From sequence record OQ599310: a stretch of DNA of 64,000 bases. One strand, written 5' to 3'. Every line of letters starts with the position of its first letter. Position 1 is the first letter of the stretch. Shown here piece by piece: positions 7,752 to 60,881 of this stretch. The position numbers were made by a program, and so were the translations under genes. This DNA is from Escherichia phage 55. Below the pieces are notes generated by a model. The model ran no database searches, had not been told where the DNA came from, and worked only from the letters and a program-made list of their open reading frames with translations.

Positions 7752-10700
7752 TTATGCTAAACGAACGATATAGTTAAAAGCAACGTTTTTAACTGTGTTT
7801 TCTGTATTTCCTGTGGCATTTACAGTTATTGTATGTCCATGGGAACCAATTGCAACAGTATGAGAATGAGCACCAATACCTACCGAATGGGTATGAGCAC
7901 CAATACCTACCGTATGAGCATGGTTACCCGTAGAGCTAGTAGTTCCTGACCAACTATGGGTGTGGGCACCGTCATTTGATGTTTTACCGACCTTAGTTGC
8001 TAAAGTCGAACCAGTGATACCTGAGTTAATTTTAGCATATGAGTTTGCACCTATCGTAGTAACCCCGTCTCTAAACAAACCGTCTGCCCATGCAGCAATG
8101 ACCTGTGGACCTGAACGCGCGTGTTGGTGAGCTCCTGCGGAACTAGTATTACCACTCACTGTATGGGTATGGTTACCAGTGGTATTACTGGTCTTAGTAC
8201 CATAATCAAATCTTGAAGTCGTTTTGCTACCGTAATCAAAACTAGAAGTGGTCTTAGTACCCAAATCTGTGCTTGATGCACTTGCACTATGGCTATGTGA
8301 CTTAACACCGTCTGCTTCTGTACTTAATACAGCGCGCCCAGATGGTTTACCCTTGATAGTTTGACCACGCATATCAGGCAGAGCGCCAGAAGGATACACC
8401 GCAGCTAACTTAGGATACAAGCCAGTATCAAATGTTTGGCCTTCCATTATGGCATAACCTTCAGGAGGTGTATCAGTAGGCCAAGGAATCGGAGCACCAA
8501 TTGGATAACTTGAGACAATATCAGTTTTAAGTGATTCAATTGTACTATTTAAGTTGGCAAAATTACCAGAACCACCAGTAATGTTACCGTCTGTACCTAA
8601 ATAAACTGAACCCCCAGCAGAAATGCGCTTAGGAGATATAAAATCACCAGAACGTGTAAATTCCCAGCCTAAATCTTTTATAGTTGCGCCTGTTGAACTT
8701 CCGTCTCCACCTTCATGATAATGAACTCTGAAGTTACCGCCATTTATTAAAGTACCTAAAGAATAACAGCTATTTCCTTGAACATAACGTTGTTTTAAAA
8801 TAGGAACGTAAGTACTTGTATCTGTGCGATTAATATTCATATAGAACGGAGCACGAACGTTTTCATTATTTTGTGAAGCAAAAGACCCTGCACCAGCCGG
8901 GCGAACGGTGTCAGTACATTCAGCATCAATATAAGCTGCTTGTCCTACCTGCATACGGTAATTAGGAGAAATACGACTATGACTAGTAACAACAACAAGT
9001 TTGTTATCATTGTCCACAGTAATCATATTACCGCCAGCGCCATCATCGCCTAACGTGACAGAATGGCGCATTTGTACCATACCATTATTAAGACTAATAC
9101 TTAATGGACGGAGATTGCTTATTCCACCTGATTCTCCAGCATCTTTAGGAGTCGGGATAATATGCAATGCCGCCTCTGAACGACGGAAAATAGCACCATA
9201 TTCAGCATTCCAAATTCTTAACGCATCTGCAGTTCCGCCAAACTTAGCCTGGCCATTTACTGTCATGCCATTATTAACACTCAAAGAAGATTCAGTTGTA
9301 ATAGAACCAGAAGCAACAATACTACCTGAAGTTAATAAACCGCCATTAACTCGGAATTGAATAGGTCCGACAGTAGAACCTACACCAGGAGCAACTCGTT
9401 GAGAATAAAAATGGTAACCTTGTCCATCTGATACTTCAAAAACTGTTTCACGGGAATGATCGCCAGATGCGTTAAAGGCATTACCCCATGCTTTAACAGT
9501 TACATAACTCTTATTCTGGCCTGCTCGAGTGCCGCCTTCCCAAAGGATTTGTTTGGTGCCATCAATCGTGGTAGTTGCTGAAAAAGTCAAACCTGCTGTT
9601 GAGTTATTAGCTGCTAAATATACGCCGTTATATATTGAAAGCTGCTTAACAGATGTAATACCGCCATCAGCATAAAACCTTACATTATTAGCGCCTGTTA
9701 CTAGTTTAAGAACACCGGGGTTAATTTCCATACCTTCTTGGGTATTAATATTCATTTGGCCTTTACCGCGGAAATAGTGCGACATTTTTCCACCAGAGTT
9801 ATAGCCAATATGCGTCCGACCGTCCCCTGCGTTATTCACATCCGCTTGAGTTTGGACTGATAAAAATGCAGCATTAGTACCAGGCATAATCCATGTAGTG
9901 CCTTGGTCTTCTGAACGTCCAAATAACGCTTTACGAGTACTACGGAAACTGTCAGGAGTAATAGAAGCAACAGAATAACCACCGCCAACTAAATCATAAA
10001 CTCCTTGTTTAATATATTTCAGACCTGTTACAGTGTCACCGAGAACAAGATACTTATCGCCCATTACACCGACGTTACCATAATCGCTAGACGGGAAATC
10101 TGTAGTGAATGTACCTAATGCAAGGCTATTACGGCCAGCCATTCGACCATCATTACGAATACCATACTGTTTTGACTGTGGAGTATTACCTGTCCACCAA
10201 GACATTTCATCAGCTTGGCCTAATTGAGCAGTACAAAGCTCATGCCACATAGTGCCACCGGATTTGGCACGAACTCTACGAAGATAGTTTACACCATTCG
10301 TTTCACCGGTGCCTGGGTATACATAGTTAACTAATGAATCCGTATCATATACACCAAAGGCTTTTCCACCGTGAATAACTGTATCAACTGCAATGCGTTT
10401 AGTTACTAACGAATCTGATGCTAAAATACGGTTAGCCTGAAATTCGCCTCCATTTATAGAACGGAAATAGAATTCACTATTAGTAGTGCTTCCTGTTCCT
10501 TGTCTAACCCTAAGGCGTATTTCACCATCAGTTGTAGTTTGAGGACGAGCATATATAACGCCTCGTTCAGTGCCATCGGCATTTTCAAACCATAAATGGG
10601 CATTTGCAGTATCGTTTGTTGCTCTTGTATAAAATGAACCCTGTGTAGATCTGAAAACTTTTGCAGTTACGCCATCAGTAGAACCAATTGGTCCGTTTAC

Positions 10701-16721: not shown

Positions 16722-16729
16722 TATTTATA
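16722..16729 (-). promoter_or_regulatory. late promoter TATAAATA for gene 34
   Basis: Reverse complement of tatttata 16722-16729, about 30 bp upstream of the gene 34 start. Confidence 0.55.
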
Positions 16730-16732
16730 CCA

Positions 16733-16762
16733 GTTTACGCTTTCAAATGAGTGTGTTACTAT
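16733..16762 (+). promoter_or_regulatory. T4-type early promoter for rnh (GTTTAC, 18 bp, TGTGTTACTAT)
   Basis: GTTTAC 16733-16738; TACTAT 16757-16762; divergent from the gene 34 late promoter. Confidence 0.55.
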
Positions 16763-32770: not shown

Positions 32771-32800
32771 GTTTACAACATGGTGGAGTTGTGATACTAT
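32771..32800 (+). promoter_or_regulatory. T4-type early promoter (GTTTAC, 18 bp, TGTGATACTAT)
   Basis: GTTTAC 32771-32776; TACTAT 32795-32800. Confidence 0.55.
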
Positions 32801-57567: not shown

Positions 57568-57575
57568 CGAAAAAA

Positions 57576-57591
57576 GGGACCGTAAGGTCCC
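57576..57591. terminator. bidirectional hairpin GGGACC-guaa-GGUCCC flanked by A5 and T6
   Basis: Between convergent rnlB (+) and gene 24 (-). Confidence 0.7.
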
Positions 57592-57600
57592 TTTTTTCGT

Positions 57601-58884
57601 TTATTCATCTATAATAATTTTAGGCAATTTAACACCTAGTAAAACAGACAAGTCTGAACGTCCTGCCATTTTATCCATGTCCCCGCCATCAATTATTCTC
57701 GCTTCTTTTTCGTCTTTTGCTACTGTGTAAGGATTTGCTGATAAAGCATATCTAACCAATAATCCGATAGACGGTTGCAAGCTTTCTGGATCAACTACAA
57801 CTTTAAATGCACCAACATGTTCCGGGTCATCTAAATCCACTCCTTCGGTGTATGGAGCATAAAAGATGGACCCTACAATTTCTTTTTCGCCGAGATTTTC
57901 TACAACACCCACAATAACATAATCTAACGGGCTGTTGGTATCGCAGTAAAGAGGTAATCCATTTGCCAAGAATCCATAAGCATTTTGTGAAAGATACTTG
58001 TCATCTTCTGGCTTATGTTTTAACCAACCGGAAGCAGCAAGAATAGCAGCTGCACGAGCTGAGGCTACACAAAACGTTGCAGTATAAGTTGTCTCTTTTT
58101 GAATGTGCGATACCATTTCACACACCATTCGATATAATGAACGACCTGCTTCTGGAGCGGATGCATAGCTCAAGTCAATAAATCCAGTGTCAGTAATTCC
58201 AGTAACTTTATAACGTTTCGATACAGTAATTAAAGACTGAAGAATATCTTTATTAATTTCATCAGCCATTTCAGTAGCAAGCAAATCTTCTAAGAAGTTA
58301 GGGGCATCAAATCCATTCGCTTCCAAATCTTGCGCTAATTCAACCGTGAGACCAGTTTTAAGTTTACGAGATTTGACTGAAGTTTGCCATTTATTAATCT
58401 GGAATCTTGCATCAGAAATTTCGCTACCAGAGCTTTCAAATTTGCTTGTTACCGCTGCATCTGAAAATAACCGTACCTTTAAATGAACGACTGCAATCTG
58501 AAGAGCTAATTCTAGATCACTTTCTTGAATATCTGCAAATGGTGTATCTTCTAACACCTTATAGACGATATTATTATATTTGAAAAAATCACCTTTATTT
58601 AGTGTGGCTTTTGATTCTTCTGTGAGCTCAGTAATTTTTTCTCGGTCTACATATCCAGCTTCGCCTGCATAAGTAGCACCAGTTTTAAATGTGAATTCGT
58701 TATCTGGGTTAAGATATTTGATACCATAAAAAGCAGCAACAGGTTGATTAGTTCTTTGTGTTGCTACAATGTCAGAATATATTAATTTAGTCGTAGCGCG
58801 AGTCAAAGCAACGAGATTTGGGCGACCGATTGAGTTGCTAGTAGACGTTGTAGATTCACGCAATAATTTTTGGATTTTACTCAT
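57601..58884 (-). CDS. 24: gp24 head vertex protein
   Basis: 427 aa as in T4 gp24. Confidence 0.92.
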   Translation of the reverse strand: MSKIQKLLRESTTSTSNSIGRPNLVALTRATTKLIYSDIVATQRTNQPVAAFYGIKYLNPDNEFTFKTGATYAGEAGYVDREKITELTEESKATLNKGDFFKYNNIVYKVLEDTPFADIQESDLELALQIAVVHLKVRLFSDAAVTSKFESSGSEISDARFQINKWQTSVKSRKLKTGLTVELAQDLEANGFDAPNFLEDLLATEMADEINKDILQSLITVSKRYKVTGITDTGFIDLSYASAPEAGRSLYRMVCEMVSHIQKETTYTATFCVASARAAAILAASGWLKHKPEDDKYLSQNAYGFLANGLPLYCDTNSPLDYVIVGVVENLGEKEIVGSIFYAPYTEGVDLDDPEHVGAFKVVVDPESLQPSIGLLVRYALSANPYTVAKDEKEARIIDGGDMDKMAGRSDLSVLLGVKLPKIIIDE

Positions 58885-58911: not shown

Positions 58912-58919
58912 TATTTATA
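58912..58919 (-). promoter_or_regulatory. late promoter TATAAATA for gene 24
   Basis: Reverse complement of tatttata 58912-58919, about 30 bp upstream of the gene 24 start. Confidence 0.55.
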
Positions 58920-58925
58920 AAGATT

Positions 58926-58955
58926 GTTTACAACGTATTTGGTATGTGATACTAT
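58926..58955 (+). promoter_or_regulatory. T4-type early promoter (GTTTAC, 18 bp, TGTGATACTAT) driving the orphan gene between 24 and 23
   Basis: GTTTAC 58926-58931; TACTAT 58950-58955. Confidence 0.55.
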
Positions 58956-58985
58956 AGACTTATCAACTACAGAGGAGTAAACAAA

Positions 58986-59255
58986 ATGACTAAAGCACGT
59001 TTCTTACGAGATACTTTAAAAGTTCTAGAAGCTGAAGCAGTTAAGTTAGTAGAAAAATATGGTGCAAAAGTTAATGGTAATGCCTTCAACAAAGTATGGA
59101 TGAAAGTTGATTCTGAAGCTCGAGCTAAAGGTTATTGGGCCACTGATAAACTTGCATCATTCAAAAACAAAGACGGTTCTCCGGCATATGTCCAAGAAGG
59201 TATGCCTAATTGGCAAAATATTTTGAAAACTTACATCGAAATTGCACAGAAATAA
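58986..59255 (+). CDS. orphan hypothetical protein (89 aa) inserted between head genes 24 and 23, opposite strand
   Basis: ORF track; own early-type promoter and SD (gaggagtaaacaaaATG); followed by a terminator hairpin. Confidence 0.55.
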   Translation: MTKARFLRDTLKVLEAEAVKLVEKYGAKVNGNAFNKVWMKVDSEARAKGYWATDKLASFKNKDGSPAYVQEGMPNWQNILKTYIEIAQK

Positions 59256-59265
59256 AACCAAAAAT

Positions 59266-59283
59266 GGGAGACCGAAGTCTCCC
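59266..59283. terminator. hairpin GGGAGAC-cgaa-GUCUCCC
   Basis: Identical to 11657-11674; between convergent orphan gene (+) and gene 23 (-). Confidence 0.65.
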
Positions 59284-59312
59284 ATAAGGTTATGTATTTT
59301 AACGTTAAAGCA

Positions 59313-60881
59313 TTAAATTCCTTTAACGTAGACGCGTCTAAAGTAAGCGTTCTTACCAAGGCTGTTCAGGATAGACGGCATACCGGACTGGATGCGAGCA
59401 CCTGGAGCCTGCAGGGAACTTTCAGCAAACGGGTTAACACCGATACCGTAACGAGTTTTAAAGCCCATTACCGGCTGGAAGTTCTTAGGATCGGAACCAC
59501 GCAGTGGGGTAAGTGCAACGTAAGGAGCATAGTAAATACCTGCATCCATTTCGTTAGCGCCTTTGTAACCAACGGTGAAGTAATCCTGTTTAGCATACTG
59601 GTCGATGTATACGCGGTATTTACCACCAAGTACACCGGCAAATACAGACTTAGTAGTGTCGGTATTAAACCCAGAAGCCAGACCCTGTGCAGCGTAAGAA
59701 ATACCAGTATCAACTGAAGCCAGTACGTTAACTACGTTACGGGAAGCGATAATGAAGTTACCTTCACCACGACCGGTTTGACGAGCAATTTCAACTGCTT
59801 CTTTATCAATCTGGAACAACAGAGATTTAAAGCTTTCACCGGCCCAACGAGCACCACGGATATCAATCGGGTCCTGGAAGTCAAATACACCGGCTTTAGA
59901 ACCCGGAGTCAGGGTCATACCAGATTTACCAACCTGTGCAGAGTAGTTAATCCAATCAACAACTTCACGGTTGATTTCTAGCATAATTTCCGTAGCCAGA
60001 ATACCGCTCAGTTCAGCATCAGCATCCATACCGTGTACTGCACGGAGGTCTTGTGCTAATTCGATAGAGTAAGCAGCTTTCAGCTGGCGAGATTTAGCTT
60101 CGATAACTTGTTTATCGATACGGAAGCCCATTTCATTCCATGGGTTATCGGTAGAACCGTTGAAACCTTCCTGGAGTTCAGCGATAGAAGTAGCCATACC
60201 TTCAGCGATTTCTACCAGTGCACCAGCTTCCATTTGTTTCTTAACTTCTGCATCTAATTTAGCTGCATCAGTTGCACCAGAATCAAGTGTTACGACAGCA
60301 GAAGCTTGCAGATATACAGTACCAGTTTCTTGGAAGAAGTGAGTATAGATATCACCTACAACAGTAGTAGTGTCAGCAGCCAGAGCTGGGAATTTCTTAG
60401 CAGCACCCTGACCAGAGAACATCGCGTCTGGGGCATACATCGGATGGAAAGCTTCTTTAGCGCCAGCAGCGATAGGGTCTTTACCATATACTGCACGGAG
60501 AGCAAATACCTGACCGGTCGGGCTGTTCATAGGCTGAACACCACAAATATCAAAAGCGATCAGATTAGGAATAGCACGACGAACCATACCCATAACTGCC
60601 GGCCCAATTTGGGTTACTGCGCCAGAGGTTTGACCTGCTGCGATGTTCTGAGCATTATAACCATGGTCACCACCAATTTCAGCTTCGGTCAAGAAAGAAC
60701 CAAATGCCTGAGCGATTTTCTCGTCTTTATATTCAGGGGATACTTCGAAATCTTTTTCCTGGTTTTCGAAGATTTTAGCGATAATAGCCTGCTTGCTATT
60801 AGCGATTTCCGGCAGGCCTTCACCTTCCAGCAGTTCTTTCCATTTGTCTACGAGCTGAGCTTTAGTTTTGATAGTAGTCAT
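59313..60881 (-). CDS. 23: gp23 major capsid protein
   Basis: 522 aa; near-identical to remembered T4 gp23 (MTTIKTKAQLVDKWKELLEGEGLPEIANSKQAIIAKIFENQEKDF...). Confidence 0.96.
   Translation of the reverse strand: MTTIKTKAQLVDKWKELLEGEGLPEIANSKQAIIAKIFENQEKDFEVSPEYKDEKIAQAFGSFLTEAEIGGDHGYNAQNIAAGQTSGAVTQIGPAVMGMVRRAIPNLIAFDICGVQPMNSPTGQVFALRAVYGKDPIAAGAKEAFHPMYAPDAMFSGQGAAKKFPALAADTTTVVGDIYTHFFQETGTVYLQASAVVTLDSGATDAAKLDAEVKKQMEAGALVEIAEGMATSIAELQEGFNGSTDNPWNEMGFRIDKQVIEAKSRQLKAAYSIELAQDLRAVHGMDADAELSGILATEIMLEINREVVDWINYSAQVGKSGMTLTPGSKAGVFDFQDPIDIRGARWAGESFKSLLFQIDKEAVEIARQTGRGEGNFIIASRNVVNVLASVDTGISYAAQGLASGFNTDTTKSVFAGVLGGKYRVYIDQYAKQDYFTVGYKGANEMDAGIYYAPYVALTPLRGSDPKNFQPVMGFKTRYGIGVNPFAESSLQAPGARIQSGMPSILNSLGKNAYFRRVYVKGI

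Follow-up and report, generated by a model that had tools for sequence, protein, structure and literature searches.

The spacer between genes 24 and 23 of Escherichia phage 55 contains a genuine protein-coding gene that is under purifying selection. The gene encodes an 89-aa protein of PHROG 6003, and the promoter in front of it belongs, judged by its sequence, to the early-promoter class of the phage. Comparison with related phages indicates that alleles of the gene are exchanged between genera as a block, which extends from the promoter and Shine-Dalgarno sequence to the terminator of gene 23. The picture that we favour is that of an early, dispensable accessory protein, small and basic, which acts by binding and for which a component of the host or of its defences is the likeliest target. 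We give this whole picture about an even chance of being right. That the protein serves counter-defence or host takeover specifically is a clearly weaker proposition, which we put forward tentatively.

All positions refer to the window, the stretch of 64,000 nucleotides of sequence record OQ599310 that was analysed, and the coordinates of the features are collected in Table 1. A stretch of 3.3 kb around the locus was 98–99% identical to many Mosigvirus (RB69-like T-even) coliphages. The spacer itself measures 428 bp, and the 89-codon ORF lies within it on the plus strand, antisense to both neighbours. The ORF list and the annotation of the near-identical phages agree with the initial annotation that the genes flanking this plus-strand ORF, 24 and 23, are late genes of the minus strand. 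Base composition gave no signal of foreign origin (G + C content 35%, versus 38% for the window).

Table 1. Positions of genes and signals at the 24–23 junction in the window
Feature	Position	Strand	Details	Basis or remark
Bidirectional terminator	57572-57598	both	AAAAAAGGGACC-GTAA-GGTCCCTTTTTT, symmetric	Between convergent rnlB (+) and gene 24 (-)
Gene 24, capsid vertex protein	57601-58884	-	Late, flanking	ORF list and annotation in 98–99% identical phages
Gene 24 late promoter	58912-58919	-	TATAAATA	Exact match; left boundary of the slot, outside the cassette
Early-class sigma-70 promoter (by sequence)	58926-58955	+	-35 GTTTAC 58926-58931; extended -10 TG 58947-58948; -10 TACTAT 58950-58955	
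Shine-Dalgarno sequence	58972-58977	+	GAGGAG, 8 nt 5' of the ATG	Read from the sequence
89-aa protein gene, PHROG 6003	58986-59255	+	Start codon is the first ATG that follows a stop codon	ORF list
Gene 23 intrinsic terminator (by sequence)	59254-59285	-	Stem-loop AUGGGAGAC-UUCG-GUCUCCCAU 59285-59264; U-tract 59263-59254	Shared 3' boundary of the slot
Gene 23, major capsid protein	59313-60881	-	Late, flanking	ORF list and annotation in 98–99% identical phages

An antisense gene of a conserved family

The length of the ORF is by itself only suggestive, as 63 of 5000 shuffles (1.3%) of the spacer gave a closed ORF of 89 codons or more. Conservation is decisive. Homologues with 30–38% identity occupy the same place in Gaprivervirus (VR20), Dhakavirus (VR5, 04086 and IME08) and Tequatrovirus (KIT06); the ORF is intact in these three other genera, and homologues antisense between genes 23 and 24 were also found in uncultured T4-like contigs. 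By the Nei-Gojobori method, dN/dS was 0.06–0.12 among the Dhaka-type alleles, at an unsaturated dS of 0.4–0.6, and approximately 0.10–0.16 in comparison with relatives at 62–71% identity. Conservation of the protein persists at 30% identity although the DNA is by then saturated with change. The initial annotation had made its reading depend on conservation of the coding frame in relatives, and with dN/dS values of 0.06–0.16 the frame is indeed conserved.

The same annotation had called the gene unrecognisable, which proved to be incorrect. The protein matches the profile of PHROG 6003 (function unknown) with an E-value of 2.1e-45, residues 1–89 aligning with positions 1–90 of the 90 in the profile, and is thus a full-length member of this family that does not differ from it. 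The exact 89-aa sequence was present on 262 contigs and was named 'hypothetical protein' by every source that gave a name; the ORF carries this annotation in more than 200 phage records, many of them from Mosigvirus. The family members VR7 gp190, JS10 EpJS10_0170 and RB69ORF188c/189c are 'hypothetical proteins' as well. The locus tags of the family were not mentioned in any paper that we found.

Transcription signals and the boundaries of the slot

Scanning of the region upstream of the ORF identified the promoter TTTACA-17-TACTAT with an extended -10 TG, from which transcription of the ORF would start near position 58962. The 64-kb window has 20 sites of the format GTTTAC-N16-18-TANNNT, compared to 3.2 expected, and 19 of the 20 lie on the plus strand. 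Because the format exceeds chance and is biased to this strand, we assign the promoter of the ORF to the early-promoter class of the phage. It has the features of a T4-type early promoter, namely a GTTTAC-like -35 box, a spacer of 17 ± 1 and TAnnnT with TG. Dhakavirus and KIT06 keep the GTTTAC and TACTAT boxes in front of their homologous ORFs, and the promoter is missing at the empty site of Tequatrovirus phage NBG2; it travels with the insert. The GAGGAG sequence is kept in 6 of 8 aligned loci. Both the early-type promoter and the strong Shine-Dalgarno sequence of the initial annotation were therefore confirmed. No transcriptome of a Mosigvirus or a Dhakavirus was found in the literature.

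The 18 further plus-strand sites of this format are located at positions 266, 778, 3347, 3668, 4255, 6164, 16581, 16733, 20752, 28057, 29239, 30645, 32771, 36224, 36670, 43582, 44393 and 56071, and the ending GTG(A/T)TACTAT is common among them. Near-copies of the promoter of the ORF include the sites at 32771 and 43582. The plus-strand set as a whole looks like a map of the early promoters of the window.

On the left, the slot is bounded by the late promoter of gene 24. Its motif TATAAATA was kept in all 8 aligned phages, the T4 locus included, and it is also present at the empty site of NBG2. The late promoter stands back to back with the early promoter of the ORF, on the opposite strand and 6 bp from its -35 box. 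The same layout is seen again at 16722-16762, where TATAAATA on the minus strand (16722-16729) is separated by 3 bp from an early-type GTTTAC...TACTAT motif on the plus strand (16733-16762). Further to the left, plus-strand transcription from rnlB should end at the bidirectional terminator between rnlB and gene 24, and the ORF therefore needs a promoter of its own. The simple terminator scan missed this bidirectional terminator.

On the right, the initial annotation had placed a hairpin directly after the stop codon of the ORF. The position was correct (59264-59285); the assignment of the hairpin to the ORF was not. Folding energies were -17.8 kcal/mol on the plus strand (z = -5.3) and -19.2 kcal/mol on the minus strand, and the terminator scan called the hairpin as an intrinsic terminator on the minus strand only, where GGGAGAC-UUCG-GUCUCCC is followed by UUUUGGUUUU. 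The U-tract of this terminator overlaps the stop codon of the ORF by 2 nt. Read on the plus strand the hairpin has a CGAA loop and the tail AUAAGGUUAUG, without a U-tract, so that the ORF strand lacks the combination of a GC-rich hairpin and a U-tract that makes an intrinsic terminator. In T4, a UUCG-loop hairpin of the same kind lies 3' of gene 23 and was called as a terminator on the strand of gene 23. In NBG2 the 23–24 spacer is 83 bp and its only contents are TATAAATA and the UUCG-loop hairpin, and in phage MM02 the hairpin is annotated as a minus-strand terminator. Hairpins with a cUUCGg tetraloop are of a type known from T4 messages. Since the hairpin is also present in T4 and at the empty site of NBG2, we read it as the terminator of gene 23 and the fixed right boundary of the slot, and not as a part of the cassette. 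A search of Rfam gave only sub-threshold noise around the terminators.

In T4 the slot holds the gene segD, antisense between genes 23 and 24, as the initial annotation had stated; segD encodes a free-standing homing endonuclease of the GIY-YIG type. The two loci resemble each other in the slot and in the orientation of its gene, and in both the boundaries are the gene 24 late promoter and the UUCG-loop terminator of gene 23. The genes within are unrelated: the ORF of phage 55 encodes 89 aa, has no Pfam nuclease match and has a different fold according to its model. The likeness does extend to the promoter. Positions 6254-6282 of the T4 genome (NC_000866, minus strand) align with 58926-58955 of the window and read ATTTAC-N17-TGaTATTAT upstream of segD; the promoter scan of this T4 site returned TTTACA-17-TATTAT with TG and a score of 10/12. 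The start codon of T4 segD aligns with that of the ORF of the relatives.

According to a review from 2010, a promoter specific for segD could not be identified, and segD transcripts were guessed to be vanishingly rare (PMC2988022). The supplements to a T4 omics study from 2022 list segD as 'early RNA, middle protein' and the SegD protein as detected (PMC9697503). Early segD RNA in T4 would follow from the conserved early-class promoter, homologous to that of the ORF, that precedes the gene. By analogy, the early segD RNA lends indirect experimental support to the view that the orthologous promoter of the window is active early. The question of how segD is expressed, a small but standing one, may be answered simply by the position of T4 segD behind the promoter that drives the ORF in relatives.

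Distribution and exchange of the cassette

The contents of the slot were surveyed by probing the 23–24 junctions in a phage collection of 50,697 records. The slot was empty in at least 588 records, from Tequatrovirus and T4-like phages of Klebsiella, and 53 records had segD alone in a T4-type junction. The ORF family was present in the slot in 239 records; 120 of these copies were at least 80% identical to the copy in the window and 119 were less than 60% identical to it. In 38 of the 239 records the ORF was followed by segD, starting 4 nt after the stop codon of the ORF. The ORF and segD are not alternatives to each other, because they stand in tandem in these 38 phages. The slot thus has four states but only two gene families, and the initial annotation was too generous in regarding it as a hotspot for accessory genes. 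Its description of a self-contained cassette holds for the unit of promoter, Shine-Dalgarno sequence and ORF, which is missing from most T4-like phages, is absent at empty sites and is exchanged as a block; it does not hold for a terminator, which the unit does not have of its own.

Two other observations concern the surroundings of the slot. In Shigella phage JK36 (MK962754.1) the match to the 24–23 region of the window extends over 4121 bp versus 3281 bp, and the annotation 'major capsid protein' appears two times, which suggests an insertion of approximately 840 bp in or adjoining gene 23. Beside the slot, gene 24 is present as two paralogues in tandem (for capsid vertex proteins I and II) in Gaprivervirus, Dhakavirus and uncultured relatives, compared to a single gene 24 in the window and in T4.

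The exchange of alleles is apparent from two mosaic loci. The gp24 of KIT06 is 95% identical to that of the window, and its ORF product is 34% identical to that of the window and 95% identical to that of VR5. The gp24 of VR5 is only 71% identical, although its ORF matches that of KIT06 at 95%. In Mosigvirus LF82-5 both flanks are 93–100% identical to the window per 60-nt window. Between its Shine-Dalgarno sequence and the terminator of gene 23 there is an insert of approximately 960 bp, with a Dhaka-type ORF and segD, which in 60-nt windows mostly matches Dhakavirus IME08 at 90–100% identity, with four such windows at 60–83%. The GAGGAG sequence itself forms the left recombination junction in this phage. 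Because the ORFs of KIT06 and LF82-5 are incongruent with their flanks, the segment from the promoter and Shine-Dalgarno sequence to the terminator of gene 23 is regarded as an exchangeable cassette.

The ORF is probably dispensable. In the reference sequence of RB69 (NC_004928, positions 9292-9532) the copy has a +1 and a -1 frameshift approximately 150 nt apart, together with a cluster of mismatches, and the annotation divides it into the fragments ORF188c and ORF189c. Either this copy is truly a pseudogene, or the sequence of 2003 is in error. A split copy of the ORF is present in phage mogra. At least two phage records (RB69 and mogra) thus have a broken copy, and the ORF is most likely non-essential.

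Outside the T-even phages, the family was found in the Vequintavirinae phage ABPH49 and similar large contigs, within arrays of small ORFs. Among uncultured contigs, one member is accompanied by NinX, primase-helicase and Ead/Ea22 genes, and another lies at the boundary of a tail-fibre and a replication module; one contig with the family has siphovirus-type tail genes and one has P22-type accessory genes. No neighbouring gene was conserved outside the T-evens beyond the synteny of a lineage.

The cassette resembles the morons and other accessory cassettes of phages: it is present or absent between core genes, has a phylogeny incongruent with its flanks, carries its own promoter, is patchily distributed and is horizontally exchanged, and the ORF would be transcribed independently of the flanking core genes. 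Unlike morons, it lacks a terminator of its own and uses the reverse side of that of gene 23. It also belongs to a strictly lytic phage, in which it would be expressed early in lytic growth and not from a prophage.

Properties of the protein and its possible roles

Modelling with AlphaFold2 on an alignment of 25 sequences gave a pLDDT of 94.8 and a pTM of 0.81, superseding an earlier model from 5 sequences (pLDDT 68). The predicted fold consists of helix 3–25, helix 31–48, a β-hairpin (52–60/66–70) and helix 76–88. Seven columns were invariant across the 25 sequences (M1, K3, F6, G31, N32, N35 and Q70), and N30 and L14 were nearly so. The protein has a pI of 9.6, and 24 of the 25 members are basic (pI 9.2–9.9, net charge +3 to +9). 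No Cys or His is conserved among the 25 members, and there is no acidic catalytic pattern.

Relatives of known function were not detected. Searches of Pfam returned only a sub-threshold match to DUF4859, and no Pfam family matched consistently across the 25 members. The protein does not match the nuclease domain families of Pfam either, which means that it does not qualify as a GIY-YIG homing endonuclease. NCBIfam and PADLOC gave nothing meaningful for the family. A profile search of the PDB found only coiled or designed helices (E > 0.2), Foldseek against the PDB gave only E-values of 1 or higher, and Foldseek against the viral structures of BFVD recovered only a member of the family itself. 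An exhaustive HMMER search of 1.8 billion cluster representatives yielded approximately five clusters (at 50% identity) of true relatives. Two other HMMER matches, P0013 (655 aa) and P0014 (Ig-like repeats, eukaryotic), were rejected as long repeat proteins, because their E-values were taken to be inflated by summing over the repeats. The repeats of P0013 look cytochrome-b5-like, and each of them begins with a stretch similar to residues 40–70 of the ORF product (W-x-T-D-K-L-A-x-F-x-N-K-D-G-S-P-A-Y-V); the resemblance was judged spurious. A third protein, P0033 (160 aa), was set aside because it looks like the product of a chimeric contig.

In the course of infection that we envisage, host RNA polymerase would transcribe the ORF in the first minutes, and the early message would end at the shared hairpin or just past it, its 3' end perhaps being stabilised by this hairpin. 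Convergent transcription of gene 23 would take over the region late in infection. The product most likely binds a macromolecule stoichiometrically and does not act as a catalyst; we consider it a binder and not an enzyme because it is small, consistently basic and without conserved Cys, His or an acidic catalytic pattern. The target would most likely be a component of the host or of its defences, because of the accessory, mobile behaviour of the gene and its presence across phage types. In this respect the protein is comparable to the T-even takeover proteins Alc, Ndd and MotB and to Emp/Gp94 of Mosigvirus AV110, which are likewise small, expressed from early-class promoters and non-essential, with host-macromolecule binding presumed. 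No similarity in sequence or fold between these proteins and the ORF product was detected.

The conserved basic charge would suit a nucleic-acid-binding regulator equally well. Such a protein would act on the phage's own programme (transcription, translation or the state of the nucleoid) rather than on host defences, and several small early proteins of T4 bind DNA or RNA. With the charge conserved in 24 of 25 members, the helical architecture of the model and the early-class promoter in its favour, we regard this role as unlikely, yet as a serious competitor. A tie to the segD mobile element has to be considered on account of the tandem arrangement: the ORF could be a helper of this element, or cargo that provides a promoter and translational coupling, spread by co-conversion without independent benefit for the phage. 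The short distance of 4 nt to segD in 38 records, the joint import of ORF and segD in LF82-5 and the start of T4 segD at the ORF start position behind the same promoter all speak for such a tie. On the other hand, segD is missing from about 200 of the 239 records that have the ORF, no copy of the Mosig-type allele of the window was found with segD in the phage collection, the relatives outside the T-evens have no adjacent nuclease gene or conserved neighbour, and the ORF protein itself is under purifying selection. We therefore think it improbable that the ORF is simply a part of the segD element.

Two further roles would follow from the position of the ORF. Its early promoter faces gene 23 and the plus-strand hairpin has no U-tract, so that some transcripts may enter gene 23, and 'anti-late' early transcripts are known in T4. 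It is however highly improbable that the antisense RNA is the functional product, modulating the messages of gene 23 or gene 24, with the ORF being incidental: dN/dS is about 0.1 and the protein is conserved at 30% identity with the DNA saturated, the Shine-Dalgarno sequence is strong and optimally spaced, and homologues occur in contexts without gene 23 or 24 nearby. The least probable role is that of an accessory factor in head assembly that would serve gp23 or gp24, for example as a chaperone or regulator. Apart from the location between the two genes, all that points to it is a very weak profile match to an 'internal virion protein' PHROG (E = 0.09); against it, the ORF runs opposite to the head genes behind an early-class and not a late promoter, is missing from most of the phages whose capsid genes are nearly identical, and has relatives in phages with unrelated capsids.

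For the favoured accessory protein, a further proposal can be made, which is doubtful at present. The 89-aa protein may be the founding member of a new fold family of counter-defence or takeover factors in T-even, Vequintavirinae-like and siphovirus-like coliphages, carried on a promoter-bearing cassette, sometimes together with segD, and the same promoter may explain the expression of segD in T4. A screen of early proteins of Mosigvirus AV110 comprised 45 proteins, with candidates picked by homology to early proteins of T4; the ORF falls outside this screen because it has no T4 homologue. The natural allele swaps in LF82 phages and the natural knock-outs in RB69 and mogra should make testing easy. 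Should the protein turn out to inhibit a host process or a defence system, the repertoire of counter-defence or takeover factors would gain a family without known fold relatives, and one that hundreds of therapeutic-candidate coliphages already carry. Otherwise it would be a routine accessory gene. Hundreds of genomes already list it as hypothetical, and it is a reasonable candidate for functional screening.
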